DNA of 64,000 nt from Faecousia sp. (lineage in GTDB: Bacteria > Bacillota > Clostridia > Oscillospirales > Oscillospiraceae), in assembly GCA_045540155.1 (NCBI GenBank), contig JAZQGT010000050.1, positions 16,493 to 80,492 of the forward strand. The letters are read 5' to 3'. Of the stretch, positions 10,373 through 17,739 are shown one piece after another. The stretch's first letter is position 1. Each line of letters opens with the position of its first letter. Under the pieces are notes generated by a model. That model saw nothing but the letters and a program-made list of their open reading frames with translations. It made no database searches and was not told where the DNA came from. The position numbers and the translations under genes were made by a program.

Positions 10373-12343
10373 TTACTCAGCAGCCTCTTCCGCCACTTCG
10401 TCAGCAGCCTCTTCCTCAGCCGCAGGCTCCAGCAGAGCGCGGATGGACAGGGAGATCCGCTTATTCTCAGCGTCAACATCGGTGATCTTCACCTGAACCT
10501 CCTGACCTTCGGTCAGAACGTCCTCGGGCTTGCCGATACGCTTGTCAGCAATCTGAGAAATGTGAATCAGACCGTCAACACCGGGAATAATCTCTGCAAA
10601 TGCGCCGAAGGTCATCAGCTTCACAATCTTGGCGTTGACCACATCACCCACATTGTAACCGGTCATAAACTGATTCCAGGGGTTCATCTCAGCGGTCTTA
10701 TAGCCCAGAGAAATCTTGCGCTTCTCGGGATCGAAGGAAATGACGTAAACGTCAATCTCGTCACCTACGGATACCACGTCAGCAGGAGTCTTGATGCGGT
10801 TCCAGCTCAGCTCGGAAACGTGAACCATGCCGTCCACACCGCCGATGTCCACAAATGCGCCGTAGGAGGTCAGGGACTTGACAGTACCGTGGTACTTCGC
10901 GCCGACCTCGATTTCGCTCCAAAGCTTCTCCTGAGCAGCCTTGCGCAGCTCAGAGGAAACCGCACGGATAGAACCGATCACACGGCGGCGTGCCCGATTG
11001 ACTTCGGTAATTCTCAACTCAGTGGTCTTGCCCACCAGAGCAGCCATGTCGCCGCCCTTGGCAACACCGGACTGGGAAGCGGGGATAAACACACGGATAC
11101 CCTTTACGTTGCAAACCAGACCACCCTTGTTTTCCTCGGTGATAACGCCCTCGATGGTAGTCTTTTCCTCACACCAGGTAGCCATTTCGTCCCAAACCTT
11201 CATGCCGTCCAGCTTCTTCTTGGACAGCTGGCAGACACCCTCCTGGTCGTTGACGCGGACCACGAATACCTCGATTTCGTCGCCGACTTTCAAAATGTCC
11301 TCAGGCTTTACAGTGGGGTCTGCGCTGACTTCGTCATACGGAATGTAGCCGGCATGGTTGGTGCCCAGATCAACCTGGCCTTGGGTAGCGCCGATTCCGG
11401 TAACGATGCCGATAACCTTATCTCCTGTATTTAAAGTCTTGATGGACTGCTCGAGAAGTTCCTCAAAGTTCTCCTCCTGCACAGCCTCAACATTAGTAAT
11501 TTCGCTCATAGTCTTGTTGACCTCCTTTATAATCCACGCCGGCGTCGATGCACCGGCCGTGATTCCAACATCAGCCACACCGCGAAAGAATTCGGGATCC
11601 AGCTCTGATGCGTTATCCACCAGAACGACCCGATCGCAGTGTTCCCGACAAATCATTGCTAATCGGCCTGTGTTGGAACTGTGAGTGTCACCTACAACGA
11701 CCATAGCCTGACAGACTTTACTTAAATTTGCCGCTTCGCTCTGCCGGGATTCAGTAGCTTTGCATATTGTATCAAAGATTTTCAAATTAGTAAACACTTT
11801 TTTTGCAAAATTTTCGCAAGTTTTCCACAATGCCTCCTGAGAGGTGGTCTGGCAGACCATGCTGATGGGGGTATCGGGGGAAACAGCGCCGGAATTCACC
11901 CAAGCTGCCAGTTCATCAGCGTTTTCGAAAATTTCGCAACGGGAACACCAGCCGGCAATCCCTTCCACCTCCGGGTGAGCGCGGGTGCCGATAATAACCG
12001 GCAGTCTTCCGTCAGCTTCCGCGCGGCTGACGATGCCGTGAATCCGCTTGACAAAGGGGCAGGTGGCATCCACCACCTGGGCGCCGCTTTTTTCCAGCGC
12101 CTCCTGTACCGCTTTGGTGATGCCGTGGGAGCGGATAATCACCGTCTGTCCGGGCTTTGCCTCCTGCGCCGATTCAATCACCTGCACGCCCATTTCTCGG
12201 AAACGGTCTACAGCGTGGCGATTGTGAATGATAGGGCCCAGCGTACAGACCTGCTTTCCGGATTCCGCCGCCTGCTCCACCAACTCCACTGCCCGGTTTA
12301 CCCCAAAACAAAAGCCGGCACTTTTCGCTACACGGATACTCAT
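10373..12343 (-). CDS. ispH: Bifunctional 4-hydroxy-3-methylbut-2-enyl diphosphate reductase / 30S ribosomal protein S1
   Basis: AGFCFGV, IIHN, DATCPFV, DTICKAT, SSNT and TAGASTP motifs, followed by four S1 repeats (YGAFVDIGGVDGMVHVSELSW). Confidence 0.95.
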   Translation of the reverse strand: MSIRVAKSAGFCFGVNRAVELVEQAAESGKQVCTLGPIIHNRHAVDRFREMGVQVIESAQEAKPGQTVIIRSHGITKAVQEALEKSGAQVVDATCPFVKRIHGIVSRAEADGRLPVIIGTRAHPEVEGIAGWCSRCEIFENADELAAWVNSGAVSPDTPISMVCQTTSQEALWKTCENFAKKVFTNLKIFDTICKATESRQSEAANLSKVCQAMVVVGDTHSSNTGRLAMICREHCDRVVLVDNASELDPEFFRGVADVGITAGASTPAWIIKEVNKTMSEITNVEAVQEENFEELLEQSIKTLNTGDKVIGIVTGIGATQGQVDLGTNHAGYIPYDEVSADPTVKPEDILKVGDEIEVFVVRVNDQEGVCQLSKKKLDGMKVWDEMATWCEEKTTIEGVITEENKGGLVCNVKGIRVFIPASQSGVAKGGDMAALVGKTTELRITEVNRARRRVIGSIRAVSSELRKAAQEKLWSEIEVGAKYHGTVKSLTSYGAFVDIGGVDGMVHVSELSWNRIKTPADVVSVGDEIDVYVISFDPEKRKISLGYKTAEMNPWNQFMTGYNVGDVVNAKIVKLMTFGAFAEIIPGVDGLIHISQIADKRIGKPEDVLTEGQEVQVKITDVDAENKRISLSIRALLEPAAEEEAADEVAEEAAE

Positions 12344-13020
12344 AACGGAATCTTCTCCTTAATAATCCGGGTCATTTCCCCAATGACGCCCTCAATATCC
12401 AGCTCAGACGTATCCAACTTGATGGAATCCCTCGCCATTTTCAGCGGCGCGATGGGGCGGTGGGTATCCTGATAATCCCGCTGGATAATTTCCTTCAGCA
12501 CCACCTCATACACAGCCTTCTGGCCCTTGGCCAGCAGCTCATCGGTACGGCGTCTTGCCCGCACCTCCGGGGAGGCAGTGAGAAAAATCTTCACATCGGC
12601 CTTGGGCAGCACCACTGTGCCGATATCCCGGCCGTCCATAATCACATTGTGTGCCTTTGCCACATCCCGCTGCATGTCCAGCAGCACCTCCCGCACCACA
12701 GCGTGGGCAGATACCAGGCTGGCTTTCTGAGATATGTCCTGGGTGCGGATTTCGTCGGTCACATCCATGCCGTTCATAATCATGTGCTGCTTGCCATCTT
12801 CATCGTATTCAATCTGAACGGTCAGCTCATCAATGTACCGCTCCACACCGTCCACATCCTTGGGGCTGACCCCCAGCAGGTCCAAAAAATATGCCACGGT
12901 GCGGTAAATCGCGCCGGTATCCACATAGTAATAGCCCAATTCCTTGGCAAGACGCTTTGCCATGGTGCTCTTTCCCGCACCGGCAGGACCGTCGATTGCG
13001 ATTGCGTATGTCTTTGCCAT
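12340..13020 (-). CDS. cmk: Cytidylate kinase
   Basis: IAIDGPAGAGKST, DTGAIYR, MDGRDIGTVVLP. Confidence 0.96.
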   Translation of the reverse strand: MAKTYAIAIDGPAGAGKSTMAKRLAKELGYYYVDTGAIYRTVAYFLDLLGVSPKDVDGVERYIDELTVQIEYDEDGKQHMIMNGMDVTDEIRTQDISQKASLVSAHAVVREVLLDMQRDVAKAHNVIMDGRDIGTVVLPKADVKIFLTASPEVRARRRTDELLAKGQKAVYEVVLKEIIQRDYQDTHRPIAPLKMARDSIKLDTSELDIEGVIGEMTRIIKEKIPL

Positions 13021-13033
13021 TTTCGTTTCCTCC

Positions 13034-14068
13034 TTATTCTTCCTGCTGCCGCAGCTTTAACAGGGCATTTGCCTCTAAGGTCACCACTTCGTCCGCCGTC
13101 AGACCCAGCGCCTCCCCCGTTTCCTGAGGGGATTTCGGCAGCCCGCCCTCCAGGCCAAACCGCAGGGTCAGCAGCCTTTGCTCCTGCTCACTTAAGGCAG
13201 AAAGCATATCCAGAATCCGCTGCCGTGTCTGGAAATACGCGGTGTTCTGCACCTCTTGATTATCCTCGGGGGACTCCTGCCGGGGCTGTCGGGACTGCAC
13301 TATCTGCTGCCGGGCTCTTGCCTGATTCAGCATAGCGGAATATGCAGCTGCTTCCTCCACCGTCACGTGAATCGCCTCCGCCACCTCCTCCAAGGTGGGG
13401 TTTCTGCCCAACTCTGCCAGCAGCCGCTGGTCCATATCCCGATAATCCTCCATGCCCTGCCGCAGCTTTTGTCCCACGCCGCAGGAATGTGCCTGCAGGA
13501 GCACTGCCTTGCTGAGATACTGGTCAATCCACCAGCTTATGTGGTTTACATAATCTCCGTCTGTGTAGTTCAGGATTCCCTGCCACAGACCCAGGCTTCC
13601 TTCTTGAATCAAATCCAACAGCAGCACGCCCCGCCCGGTCATGGCGCAGGCCCGTTCCACCACATGGCTCAACGACAAATTTACCAGCTGCTGCCCCGCC
13701 GCATCGTCACCGGCAGCATATTGCCGGGCAAGCACCGCTACATCCCCTGCAGCAGGCATGGCAGCCAGCTCCTCCAAATACAGACGCAGGGGGTCATTTT
13801 CTTCCAGGCCCGCCAAAAGCCGTCCGCTTTGTGCCAGCTGCTGTTCCTGCCGCAGCCGCAGGGCTGCCTCGCCGCTGCCGTTTTCCCTGGGCAGATCGGA
13901 GATATCCAGCGTGATGCCTTTCTGCTCCAGTGCCAGCAATGCTTCTTCCCCATCGTCCTGGGACAAGTCCTCCAGCAGCTCCAGACAGCGGAGGGCAGAT
14001 ATGGTGTCTCCCGGGCGCAGGGCGCTGATTGCCTGCTCCCAGGGGGTTTCTTCAAATACAAATTCCAT
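13034..14068 (-). CDS. Degenerate RpoD-like sigma-70 paralogue (acidic N-terminus, regions 1.2/2.2/3 present; region 4.2 recognition helix eroded)
   Basis: [49 protein letters not shown]. Confidence 0.8.
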   Translation of the reverse strand: MEFVFEETPWEQAISALRPGDTISALRCLELLEDLSQDDGEEALLALEQKGITLDISDLPRENGSGEAALRLRQEQQLAQSGRLLAGLEENDPLRLYLEELAAMPAAGDVAVLARQYAAGDDAAGQQLVNLSLSHVVERACAMTGRGVLLLDLIQEGSLGLWQGILNYTDGDYVNHISWWIDQYLSKAVLLQAHSCGVGQKLRQGMEDYRDMDQRLLAELGRNPTLEEVAEAIHVTVEEAAAYSAMLNQARARQQIVQSRQPRQESPEDNQEVQNTAYFQTRQRILDMLSALSEQEQRLLTLRFGLEGGLPKSPQETGEALGLTADEVVTLEANALLKLRQQEE

Positions 14069-14937
14069 CAGTACAGAAAATCCTCCAATCCCAGACCGGC
14101 GCCCAGCTGCTGCAGCTTGTCCATTGCCTGACGTTCAATCTGACGGGCGCGTTCCTTGGTAACGCCCAATCTTTCACCGATGGCCTCCAAGGGGTAGCAA
14201 ACGCCGTCCTCCATGCCAAAGCGTAGCCGCAAAAGCCGCTCCTGCCGCTCCGGCAGCTGCCCCAGCAGGGCATCCATGGTCTGCTTCAGCTCCCGCCGCA
14301 CCAGTTCCTCCTGGGGCTGGGGCGTCTGCAAATCCTCCAACAGCACCTGCAGGGTGCTGTCCTCCCCCTCACCTGCAGGGGCGTCCAGAGAGCATACCTC
14401 CGGTATCAGTGACAGGTACTGCTGCACTTTTTTCACAGAAATACCGCTGTGCGCGGCAAGCTCCTCTATTTCCGGCTCACGTCCAAGGGTTTGCTTCAGC
14501 GCCGTCTTGGCTGCAAGCACCTTCCGGATGCGCTCGGCAGTATGTACCGGAACACGAATCAGCCCCGCGTGATTTAAGATACAACGGCTTACACCCTGCC
14601 GGATCCATTTGGTGGCATAGGTGGAGAACCGGTAATCCAGGGTATAATCAAACTTCTTCGCCGCAATCAGCAGACCGATACTGCCCTCCTGAATCAGGTC
14701 CAGCAGTGGGACACCCCGGCCGGCATATTCCTTGGCCACCGACACCACCAGTCGCAGATTGGCGCTGACCATTACGCGAATCGCCTCCTCGTCGCCGGCA
14801 GCGCACCCCTTGGCCAGTTCCCGTTCCTGATCAGGTGTCAGTCGGGGAATGGTGCGAATCTGCTGCAGATACTGCTGCGCCTCATCCTCTCCGTGGCTGA
14901 CAAAGGAATCTGATTGTTCCAGCAAGGTTACACTCAT
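14068..14937 (-). CDS. RpoD/SigA-family sigma-70 factor lacking region 1.1
   Basis: [54 protein letters not shown]. Confidence 0.88.
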
Positions 14938-16673
14938 GCTTTCGTTCCTTTACTTTCTTTGAACTTATTTCTGATGGCAAGCAGATCATCGTCAGAAGAA
15001 ACTGTCCGGCTCCGCTGCTCCTCCAGAATAATTTTCATACAATCCCGGAAAGCCGTCTCGTTTACAGGACCGGTCTGTTTCTGACAAATGCCTGCCAAAT
15101 GGGACATCTCCTCTGCCCCCATATCCTCCAGCACCGCCAGAGAAACATCCATTCCCCGGTTGTGGCGGTTTTGCAGCTGGGTATACACCCGTCCCAGAAG
15201 GGGCACGGAAAACTGCTCCCCGGTAAGACCTGCGCACAAATCCAGCAGCGCCGGTTCCCGAAGCGCCTGGGCGATGACACCCTCCTCTGCCAGCGCAGAG
15301 CGCATATTATCATAGCGGATGGACCGCTCCTTGGGCTGCAGCGCACGCATAGGTGCCAAATCCACCTTTTCCTGTTGCTTTTTTTCCTTGGCAAGCCGCC
15401 GCTTAAAGGCTTTGTTGACCTCCAGCTTCATGGCATCACTGCTGATACCCGCAGATTCCGCCACACGGCCGCCGTAGACTTCCCGCTTAATGGAACTGTC
15501 CAGTGTGCAAATCAGCTCCGCAGCTTCCTGTACATACTGAATCTTCTGATCGTCAATACCCAAATCGTACTTTCCCCGGATGGCGCTCAGCTGATACTCC
15601 ACACGGTTGGAGCAATCCTCCAGCAGAAGCTTAAACTTATCCGCGCCGAATTTCTGCAGAAATTCATCCGGGTCCTTGGCATCCTTTACCTGCAAAACCC
15701 TGACCTTGATACCCGCATTTTCCAGCATGGGAATGGCCCGTTTAGCCGCCCGCTGGCCGGCCTCATCACCGTCATAGGTGAGAATCACCTCTTCGGTATA
15801 CCTGCTCAGAAGGGTTACCTGATCCTCCGTCAGAGAAGTACCCAAGGATGCCACCGCATTATCAAAGCCGAACTGATGCAGGGTTACCACATCAATGTTG
15901 CCCTCCACCAGAATAATGTTAGGCTGTTTGGTCTTCTTGGCAAAGTTCAGACCGAACAGATTTTTTCTTTTATTAAAAATCAGTGTTTCATTGGAGTTGA
16001 GGTATTTAGGTTCAGACTTGTCCAACACACGGCCGCCAAAGCCTACCACATTCCCCCGCACATCAATGATGGGGAACATCAGTCTGTTGCGGAATCTGTC
16101 ATAAATACGGCCGTTTTTCTCGCCCACCAAATCCGCCGCCCGCAGTTCCTCATCCGTATATCCCTTTTTGCGCATGGCGTCCACCAGCGCATTCCAGGAA
16201 TCCGGCGCATAACCCATGCCAAACTGCGTCACCGAACTCTTGGTAAGGCCCCGTTTGCTGATATAGGCGCGGCATTCCGCGCCCTCCGGGGCATAGAGCT
16301 TTTCGTTGAAAAACCGTCCGGCTTCCTTCATCAGCGCCCAAAGACGTTCCTGCTGGCGGTACCGGCTCTGATACTGCTCATCCTCCGGCACTTCCATGCC
16401 CACCCGCTTTGCCAATGCACGGACAGAATCCGGGTAACTCAACCCCTCCAGCTCCATCATAAAATTGACTACGCCGCCACCCTTGTGACAGCCAAAGCAA
16501 TAATAAATCCCCTTATCGGGCGCAACAGAAAAAGAGGCAGTTTTCTCCCCGTGGAAAGGGCAAAGTCCGAACAGATTGGCACCGGAGCGTTTCAGGCTCA
16601 CATACTGGCCAACCACTTCCTCAATGGGATTGCGGGCCACCAATTCGTCAATAAAAGATGCCGGAAATGCCAT
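14934..16673 (-). CDS. dnaG: DNA primase
   Basis: [11 protein letters not shown] Zn finger, [35 protein letters not shown]. Confidence 0.97.
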
Positions 16674-16716
16674 GCTTTTCTCCCCTTTCCTGTAAATTAC
16701 CTGATATTATATCACA

Positions 16717-17739
16717 TTATCCGCGGACATGCCACCCCATAGGGGTAAAAAGTTCCGTGTATTTATCCACCGCGTAATTGTCGGTCATGCCGGCAATATA
16801 GTCGCACACGGTGCGCTCCATGCCCTCCAGAGACATCTGGGGCTGGAAATCCTCCGGCAGCGCCTCCGGATGGGTGTAATAGTATTCATACAGACGCTTT
16901 AGCATCTCCCGCGCCTTGGCCTCCTCCCCCTTTGCCACGGGATTGCGGTAAACCCGCTCAAACATAAATTCCCGCAGCTGCTGCAGCGCCTGCTCCACAC
17001 TGGGAGAGAGAACAATGTCCCCCGCTTCCCGGGAGGTGGTAATCATATCGCACACAAGGGTGTTGATTCGTCCGGAATAGGTTGTACCCAGGGTTTTTGC
17101 CACCGGCTTGGGAATATCGCTGCCGGAAAGGATTCCTGCCCGGACAGCATCGTCAATATCGTGGTTTACGTACGCCATACGGTCTGCCCAGCGGACAATA
17201 CGCCCCTCCATGGTCTCCGGCACGAAAGGACCGGTGTGACCCAGAATGCCCATGCGCACCTCGTAAGTAAGGTTCAGTCCCTCACCGCCGTTTTCCAGCA
17301 CGTCCACCACCCGCAGGCTCTGCTCATTGTGGCAGAAGGGCTGTCCCATTGCCTCGGACAGGGCCACCTCACCGGCATGGCCGAAGGGAGTATGTCCCAA
17401 ATCATGGCCCATGGCCGCCGCCTCCGTCAAATCCTCATTGAGATTCAGCGCCTTGGCAATGGTACGGGCAATCCGCGCCACCTCCAGGGTGTGGGTCATA
17501 CGGGTGCGGTAATGGTCACCCTCCGGCCGCAGAAACACCTGGGTTTTGTGCATCAGTCTGCGAAATGCCTTGCTGTGGACAATTTTATCTGTATCCCGCT
17601 GATAAGCGGTACGTACATCCTCCGCTCTGGGTTCTTCCGGGTGCAGCCTTCCTCTTGACTCGTCGGCAAAGGCCGCCCGTTTGTCCAGCTGGATATGCTC
17701 CAAGGCCTCCAATTCTTCCCTTATGGTCATATCTCTCAC
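16717..17739 (-). CDS. dgt: Deoxyguanosinetriphosphate triphosphohydrolase-like HD protein
   Basis: AFRRLMHKTQVF, RTRMTHTLEV, HDLGHTPFGHAGE, DYIAGMTD. Confidence 0.92.
   Translation of the reverse strand: MRDMTIREELEALEHIQLDKRAAFADESRGRLHPEEPRAEDVRTAYQRDTDKIVHSKAFRRLMHKTQVFLRPEGDHYRTRMTHTLEVARIARTIAKALNLNEDLTEAAAMGHDLGHTPFGHAGEVALSEAMGQPFCHNEQSLRVVDVLENGGEGLNLTYEVRMGILGHTGPFVPETMEGRIVRWADRMAYVNHDIDDAVRAGILSGSDIPKPVAKTLGTTYSGRINTLVCDMITTSREAGDIVLSPSVEQALQQLREFMFERVYRNPVAKGEEAKAREMLKRLYEYYYTHPEALPEDFQPQMSLEGMERTVCDYIAGMTDNYAVDKYTELFTPMGWHVRG

Follow-up and report, generated by a model that had tools for sequence, protein, structure and literature searches.

Two divergent, translationally coupled sigma-70 paralogues in the dnaG operon of Faecousia

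Bacteria usually encode their main sigma factor behind the primase gene dnaG, and in other sampled genera dnaG is followed by a single gene encoding a full-length SigA of 385–440 residues. A stretch of 64,000 nucleotides from Faecousia sp. (Oscillospiraceae; assembly GCA_045540155.1, contig JAZQGT010000050.1, positions 16,493 to 80,492), which as a whole is referred to here as the window, carries at this place two genes for divergent sigma-70 paralogues, termed copy 1 and copy 2. They are joined to dnaG and to each other by overlapping stop and start codons. This arrangement raises the question of where the housekeeping sigma factor is encoded and what two diverged relatives of it might do in a primase operon. 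Here, we report that both genes are under purifying selection, that a canonical SigA is encoded elsewhere in the genome, and that the two copies have kept different parts of the sigma machinery. Copy 1 fits a group-2-type sigma factor, and copy 2 may bind RNA polymerase core without reading promoters in the canonical way.

Results

Family membership and fold of the two proteins

Searches with Pfam and NCBIfam models placed both proteins in the sigma-70 family. All four Pfam regions of copy 1 scored above their cut-offs (region 1.2, 36.0 bits; region 2, 57.7 bits; region 3, 71.7 bits; region 4, 51.8 bits). In copy 2, region 4 was above its cut-off (34.5 bits, with the cut-off at 24.1), regions 3 and 2 were just under theirs (24.3 bits for a cut-off of 25.3, and 22.2 bits for 24.0, respectively), and no further Pfam domain was found outside the sigma regions. 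The best NCBIfam model for both was the Firmicute RpoD model PRK09210 (NF006666), whose equivalog cut-off of 572 bits was reached by neither copy 1 (268.5 bits) nor copy 2 (119.6 bits); RpoD and RpoS models were the top matches for copy 1. In phmmer searches, copy 2 matched the C. difficile SigA structure 7l7b_F over nearly its whole length (E = 1.5e-34) and the B. subtilis SigA structure (E = 1e-32). An AlphaFold2 model of copy 2, made with 40 relatives in the alignment, had a sigma fold with a predicted local distance difference test (pLDDT) score of 87.5, and only the region 3.2 linker was uncertain. Foldseek searches with this model returned sigma factors exclusively; the TM-scores were low, which we attribute to the different domain arrangements that free and bound sigma factors are likely to have. 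A complex prediction for copy 1 with copy 2 gave a score of 0.00, a value that speaks neither for nor against an interaction. An earlier note on this DNA, made from its letters, had described two divergent sigma-70 paralogues after dnaG with ATGA and TGATG overlaps and a motif common to both ([15 protein letters not shown]) with the substitution N409S, and all of these features were found in the sequence.

The two proteins were then compared with group 1 sigma factors, taken as those with region 1.1 and the invariant −10, extended −10, and −35 contacts. Residue numbers follow E. coli, and the DNA-contact roles assigned to them are those we take the sigma-70 literature to support. Neither copy has the full set. 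In copy 1, region 1.1 is missing and W433K is present; a 1.1-like domain is found in copy 2, but not the residues of R451, H455, E458, R584, R586, R588, and Q589.

Copy 1 retains promoter-contact residues

The first residue of copy 1 lies some 20 positions ahead of region 1.2; the protein contains regions 1.2–4.2 and is 44% identical to the SigA of its own genome. It keeps F427, Y430, W434, R436, Q437, R441, R451, P453, H455, and E458, together with K584, E585, R586, R588, and Q589 in region 4.2. Among the SigA-invariant positions, those that contact DNA were better kept in copy 1 than the rest (0.75 vs. 0.57). The position of W433 is occupied by K in 12 of 13 copy 1 sequences and by E in the remaining one, with the codon AAA in the window. 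The missing region 1.1, the KW dyad with its AAA codon, and the sequence TKERARQIE had all been pointed out before and were all borne out. The structural definition of group 2 (PMC4598750) applies to copy 1, which fits a group-2-type sigma by its structure and may be a working stress-type sigma. W433 is proposed to serve as a wedge occupying the position vacated by the flipped −11A and, together with Y430, influences the rate-limiting step of open-complex formation (PMC4496690, PMC1919498). Because W433K removes this tryptophan wedge, promoter opening by copy 1 is probably altered. Since copy 1 lacks region 1.1 and retains the residues that read the −35, extended −10, and −12 elements, it would be expected to form a holoenzyme that works on SigA-like promoters.

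Copy 2 conserves putative docking surfaces and has lost promoter-contact residues

At its N-terminus, copy 2 carries an acidic domain resembling region 1.1; region 1.2, a region 2.2 that hardly varies, and region 4.1 are also retained. Its conservation was measured in 48 copy 2 representatives, drawn from the clusters of a global library described below, as the mean frequency of the commonest residue (mean modal frequency). The values were 0.78 for region 2.2 ([16 protein letters not shown]), 0.75 for the segment before region 4.1 (TAYFQ.RQR), 0.64 for region 4.1 (LRFGLEGG), and 0.63 for region 1.2 (NDPLRLYLEE). D403, Q406, and E407 were kept in 47–48 of the 48 sequences, as were R562 and R599 in 47 each.

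A different picture emerged at the positions that contact DNA. The position of W433 holds W in 14 sequences and R in 15, and that of W434 holds W in 14. T440 is replaced by A, R451 by G (43/48), P453 by G (42/48), and H455 by K or R; the position of E458 is varied. In region 4.2, R584 has become P or A, R586 is E or Q in 46 of the 48, R588 is hydrophobic, and Q589 is varied, and the net charge of the helix-turn-helix is about 0, compared with +3 in SigA. In place of the acidic region 3.2 finger, copy 2 has a variable linker that is 5 residues shorter and modeled with low confidence, and the basic tail after KLR is absent. Of 150 SigA-invariant positions, 21 contact DNA, and copy 2 showed lower conservation at these (0.45) than at the remaining 129 (0.60; Mann-Whitney p = 0.004, indicative only because the sequences are related), with the contact list drawn from the sigma-70 literature and fixed after the alignments had been seen. 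The window's copy 2 is slightly more eroded than the genus consensus, with WWIDQ for WWIRQ and LQAH for LQAR; its R436D is particular to the window's subclade. The reported loss of the −35 recognition residues and the sequence TADEVVTLE were both evident. The WW dyad, reported as kept, is present in this genome but is not conserved in the copy 2 family. Constrained docking surfaces and relaxed reading surfaces fit the pattern expected of a core binder that would lack canonical promoter recognition, without amounting to proof of it.

Both copies are under purifying selection and, in the genomes searched, confined to Faecousia

Ratios of nonsynonymous to synonymous substitution rates (dN/dS) were calculated between the window and eight relatives whose copy 2 is 67–81% identical. 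They were 0.08–0.19 for copy 1, 0.10–0.19 for copy 2, 0.06–0.14 for dnaG, and 0.03–0.11 for cmk, values that are rough given a dS of 0.6–2, near saturation. Both copies are under purifying selection and are clearly constrained, though fast-evolving: identity within the genus is 85–93% for SigA, 56–78% for copy 1, and 51–61% for copy 2. Decay of copy 2 in relatives, raised in the earlier note as a possible outcome, was looked for directly, and the reading frame was intact in every locus read (about 30). Four loci had been flagged for a TAA; their frames are also intact, with the stops at the gene boundary and not internal.

Of 24 Faecousia genomes, 23 have copy 2 with copy 1 immediately ahead of it. 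The remaining genome is 66% complete, and no SigA was found there either. Genome G097 has the pair as well, as do 14 additional loci whose titles name Faecousia or Oscillospiraceae. The gene order dGTPase-dnaG-copy 1-copy 2-cmk-ispH/rpsA is kept in the Faecousia loci read, as are the stop/start overlaps, which measure 1, 4, or 8 nucleotides in loci L012–L022. When 133 other genera of the family were searched with the single copy 2 sequence, nothing matched at E ≤ 1e-38. A copy 2 profile run against 400 genomes of the order scored at most 199 bits outside Faecousia, which is the level of SigA, and at least 475 bits inside; by neither search were copy 2 intermediates found outside the genus among the sampled genomes. 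A global library of 1.8 billion cluster representatives yielded about 48 full-length copy 2 clusters at 252–526 bits, whose representatives have a median pairwise identity of 39%; scores in this library, which carries no taxonomy, form a continuous series down to about 250 bits. Among the genomes searched, the pair is confined to Faecousia. Horizontal acquisition was considered and is unlikely, since the GC content overall and at third codon positions (GC3) matches that of neighboring genes and synteny is conserved.

The housekeeping SigA belongs to a second lineage

The assembly is a metagenome-reconstructed genome of 1.4 Mb that is about 81% complete. The search for a canonical sigA proposed in the earlier note located one on another contig, divergent from lepA. 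The predicted protein has 382 residues, with region 1.1 and every canonical residue, and scores 500 bits against PRK09210, also under the 572-bit cut-off. SigA likewise adjoins lepA in all six further Faecousia SigA loci, and by sequence the housekeeping sigma sits elsewhere than in the dnaG slot. Beside the SigA gene lies a gene for a 144-residue protein (L001:2996-3430, minus strand) with a His-rich N-terminal half (HxH repeats) and a Cys cluster, which may bind metal. The source genome also contains a further unusual sigma paralogue, a 378-residue open reading frame (G000:C44:31744-32319; L006/L009) with weak region 2 and region 4 matches to the RpoD model (62 and 23 bits).

Five genera of the family (represented by G056, G059, G062, G066, and G078) have a second, unlinked SigA besides a canonical dnaG-linked SigA. 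These second SigAs are 70–80% identical to the Faecousia SigA and form one clade with it, with 100% support and short branches; in those five genera they are not beside lepA (loci L053–L057). The dnaG-linked sigma factors of the two-SigA genera have longer branches, and evolve faster, than the unlinked SigA. Each of the two copies forms a monophyletic group on a long stem, and both groups lie among these fast dnaG-linked sigmas. Copy 1 attaches next to the dnaG-linked sigma of G056, and copy 2 joins the same poorly separated region on a very long stem, in trees made with a quick search whose long branches leave the placement of copy 2 unsure.

A single clade uniting the two copies was not rejected in an approximately unbiased (AU) test (p = 0.42), and N409S occurs in both copies and in 0 of 42 SigA sequences. 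The local duplication suggested earlier is therefore compatible with the tree test and with the shared substitution, short of a demonstration; a common origin by one tandem duplication would account most simply for the two copies. The companion suggestion, that the true SigA had been relocated, did not hold: the unlinked SigA is a separate, slow lineage. Because this second lineage co-occurs elsewhere with a canonical dnaG-linked SigA, the simplest history would be replacement of the dnaG-linked SigA by take-over and not by relocation.

A tandem pair of full-length SigA genes behind dnaG was also seen in two other families of the Oscillospirales, in loci L071 (G039:C9:37500-45000) and L093 (G413:C28:6610-10614). 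These proteins have 366–381 residues and all canonical contact residues in both copies; erosion resembling that of copy 2 was checked for in these pairs and is not the case. The pairs in G039 and G413 imply that tandem duplication in the dnaG slot recurs in the order.

Organization of the locus

The genes of the locus lie on the minus strand, and the coordinates and lengths previously given for them were correct (Table 1). The TGA stop of dnaG and the start of copy 1 share the sequence ATGA, an overlap of 4 nucleotides, and the stop of copy 1 overlaps the start of copy 2 by 1 nucleotide. The operon runs hflX, a yigZ-like gene, a dGTPase gene, dnaG, copy 1, copy 2, cmk, and an ispH-rpsA fusion, with intergenic gaps of −4 to 43 nucleotides; it continues beyond copy 2, as cmk overlaps the fusion downstream. 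A scan for promoters and terminators gave nothing above chance inside the operon and no strong terminator, and the number of promoter-like sites in the region was not above chance either. Of the 60 additional genomes sampled in the family, 58 have a dnaG orthologue, with 46–66% identity.

Two further details of the locus were recorded. A GGAGG sequence lies 13 nucleotides before the copy 2 start and is encoded by the conserved copy 1 C-terminal sequence GLEDFL (window positions 14076-14093, minus strand), so that this protein motif may double as the copy 2 ribosome-binding site. Directly after cmk, positions 10373-12343 (minus strand) encode a 656-residue fusion of IspH/LytB with ribosomal protein S1 repeats, which is conserved in every Faecousia locus read.

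Table 1. Features of the dnaG sigma locus in the window
Feature	Position	Strand	Basis or remark
Promoter-like GTGGCA-18-TATAAT with TG, just upstream of dnaG	16706..16735	−	Consensus match only
dnaG (primase, 579 aa)	16673..14934	−	Open reading frame and translation
Copy 1, sigma-70 paralogue, 289 aa	14937..14068	−	Open reading frame, Pfam, residue table
TGATG, copy 1 stop/copy 2 start overlap	14066..14070	−	Sequence
Copy 2, SigA-derived sigma-70 paralogue, 344 aa	14068..13034	−	Open reading frame, phmmer, AlphaFold2, conservation
cmk	13020..12340	−	Starts 13 nt after copy 2; overlaps downstream ispH-rpsA fusion

Discussion

The explanation we favor begins with the second SigA lineage, which in Faecousia stands beside lepA. 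Once it carried the housekeeping role, the ancestral dnaG-linked sigA would have been freed of that duty, and a tandem duplication in Faecousia would then have left two translationally coupled, diverged descendants inside a housekeeping operon. Copy 1 would form a holoenzyme on SigA-like promoters, with W433K changing how they open. Copy 2 would dock on the polymerase core, region 2.2 on the β′ clamp helices and regions 4.1 and 4.2 on the β flap, with the segment before region 4.1 and regions 1.1 and 1.2 as further docking parts. Bound in this manner without canonical promoter recognition, it would be co-expressed and act as a competitor of sigma factors or a modulator of RNA polymerase; at most, it would be an initiation factor using something other than −35 and extended −10 contacts. 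We put the probability of this explanation as a whole (SigA take-over, a group-2-type copy 1, and a copy 2 that binds core without canonical promoter reading) at roughly one half.

A narrower proposal for copy 2 is put forward more tentatively. It may be a selected pseudo-sigma: a full-length descendant of a primary sigma that occupies core through regions 2.2 and 4, cannot read promoters, and is co-translated with a group-2-type sigma in the primase operon, where it would serve as a competitor or buffer setting core free for SigA and copy 1. We know of no core-binding sigma mimic derived from a group 1 sigma. The combination of an alternative sigma with a core-binding pseudo-sigma, as the earlier note had it, fits the data best, in that promoter contacts are kept in copy 1 and not in copy 2; core binding itself we infer from the conserved regions.

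Several observations weigh against this interpretation. The contact list was compiled in the way described above, dS is close to saturation, and the position of copy 2 in the trees is unsure. The character of regions 2.3 and 2.4 is also partly kept: WWIRQ appears in a 12-species copy 2 consensus, the position of Y430 is aromatic (F, H, or Y) in 28 of 48 sequences, and R448 is kept in 29 of 48. Copy 2 may thus make some single-strand or −10-like contact. Moreover, some replaced residues of region 3.0 are themselves conserved (G451 and G453), which suggests a new function and not merely loss.

The partly kept regions 2.3 and 2.4 and the new residues of region 3.0 allow a reading of copy 2 as a working alternative sigma of unorthodox specificity, which would serve few promoters with a changed region 2, perhaps with an activator docking on a region 4 that no longer binds DNA; the drift in its contacts would then reflect co-evolution with a very small regulon. 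T4 gp55 works without −35 recognition, and truncated sigma-70 does likewise at extended −10 promoters. A full-length, well-folded body in the AlphaFold2 model, purifying selection, the partial retention of WWIRQ, F427, and R448 within the genus, and the novel residues that have become conserved in region 3.0 and ahead of region 4.1 would all suit such a protein. Less easily reconciled with it is the distribution of constraint: SigA and copy 1 conserve their DNA-contact positions best, and in copy 2 these positions are, among the SigA-invariant ones, conserved least. The 4.2 recognition helix has no conserved basic or base-contacting residue, with acidic or amide side chains prevailing at R586, the extended −10 readers H455 and E458 are gone, and the region 3.2 finger has given way to the shorter linker. 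We regard a working sigma as possible but somewhat doubtful.

It is also conceivable that the copies act on each other, with copy 2 as a sigma-derived antagonist or helper of copy 1 made in fixed proportion to it through translational coupling, much as a sigma and an anti-sigma are encoded together. The stop/start overlaps are conserved, the genes always occur together (no genome was found with only one copy), and the copies are partly complementary, W433 and R448 being kept in copy 2 and lost in copy 1 and −35 reading the reverse. However, region 2.2 and region 4 are kept in both proteins and would contend for identical sites on core, and no sigma-sigma heterodimer is known to us. Coupling likewise links copy 1 with the dnaG gene ahead of it and, in other genera, SigA with dnaG, so that by itself it says little. 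Such mutual action seems improbable, and the idea of a subfunctionalised pair working together is not supported; each copy has a full σ2-σ3-σ4 body of its own. Neutral erosion of a decaying duplicate would explain why copy 2 evolves faster than its neighbors (38–61% identity within the genus) and why its Pfam regions 2 and 3 fall under their cut-offs. That reading can hardly be squared with frames intact in about 30 loci, full-length sequences representing at least 48 clusters of the global library, near-invariant residue blocks, a confidently predicted fold, and dN/dS of about 0.1–0.2; purifying selection at this level argues that copy 2 is not decaying. On the strength of selection, intact frames, and conserved blocks, the pseudogene reading was rejected, and we give it next to no chance.

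Competition among sigma factors for a limited pool of core enzyme is a central idea in bacterial gene regulation, and its known modulators (Rsd, Crl, 6S RNA, and anti-sigma factors) are, to our knowledge, not sigma-shaped. If the pseudo-sigma interpretation of copy 2 is true, a sigma look-alike under selection, with docking kept and promoter reading given up, would represent a novel means of adjusting this competition. W433K in copy 1 would provide a natural test of the part played by the tryptophan wedge in a primary-like sigma. More broadly, the locus would illustrate how, after a second SigA lineage takes over, the otherwise conserved pairing of dnaG with sigA becomes open to innovation, here in an abundant but uncultured gut genus.

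Known systems resemble the Faecousia pair in part. The tandem pairs of G039 and G413 share the order of dnaG followed by two sigma genes; unlike the Faecousia pair, their copies are full length and canonical. B. subtilis SigO-RsoA is mentioned in PMC8103513 and PMC7826278 as a two-subunit sigma. As in that system, two adjacent genes here would share out sigma functions. The SigO-RsoA subunits, however, are small proteins, each with part of a sigma, whereas copy 1 and copy 2 each carry a complete σ2-σ3-σ4 and so do not make up a two-subunit sigma of that kind.

PhyR is, as far as we know, the sole well-known precedent for a selected pseudo-sigma. Its sigma mimicry is treated in Francez-Charlot 2009 and Campagne 2012, as cited in PMC4598750, and referred to in PMC4551977. 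The likeness is in logic only: in copy 2, as in PhyR, a sigma-derived fold would have been kept for protein-protein binding with promoter function lost. PhyR combines an ECF-like domain with a receiver and binds the anti-sigma NepR, not core; copy 2, in contrast, is a full-length group-1 derivative without a receiver domain that has kept the putative core-docking region 2.2. Its sequence contains no other Pfam domain, and there is no anti-sigma-like gene in the operon.

Group 2 comprises primary-like, non-essential sigma factors such as RpoS, Streptomyces HrdA-D, and cyanobacterial SigB-E (PMC4598750). Like these, copy 1 is without region 1.1, has regions 1.2–4.2, and keeps group 1 promoter-contact residues. 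It differs from them in its conserved W433K and N409S, its place in the dnaG operon, and its coupling to a second paralogue. In RpoS and the Hrd sigmas, W433 is kept. The closest parallel for several SigA-like genes comes from C. difficile, in which sigA1 lies in the dnaG operon and serves exponential growth and sigA2 is SigH-dependent and serves stationary phase, both being group 1 proteins 56–65% identical to B. subtilis SigA; Turicibacter sanguinis has three sigA paralogues (PMC7438776 and PMC13492147, respectively). Faecousia likewise has several SigA-like genes, with sigma coding behind dnaG among them, presumably with one for growth and another for other states. In contrast to C. difficile, it is the dnaG-linked genes of Faecousia that have diverged; two stand in tandem, and one is without canonical DNA contacts. 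Multiple SigA genes in Firmicutes and group 2 sigma factors are already known, and the divergent, dnaG-coupled pair of Faecousia is a new variation on them.

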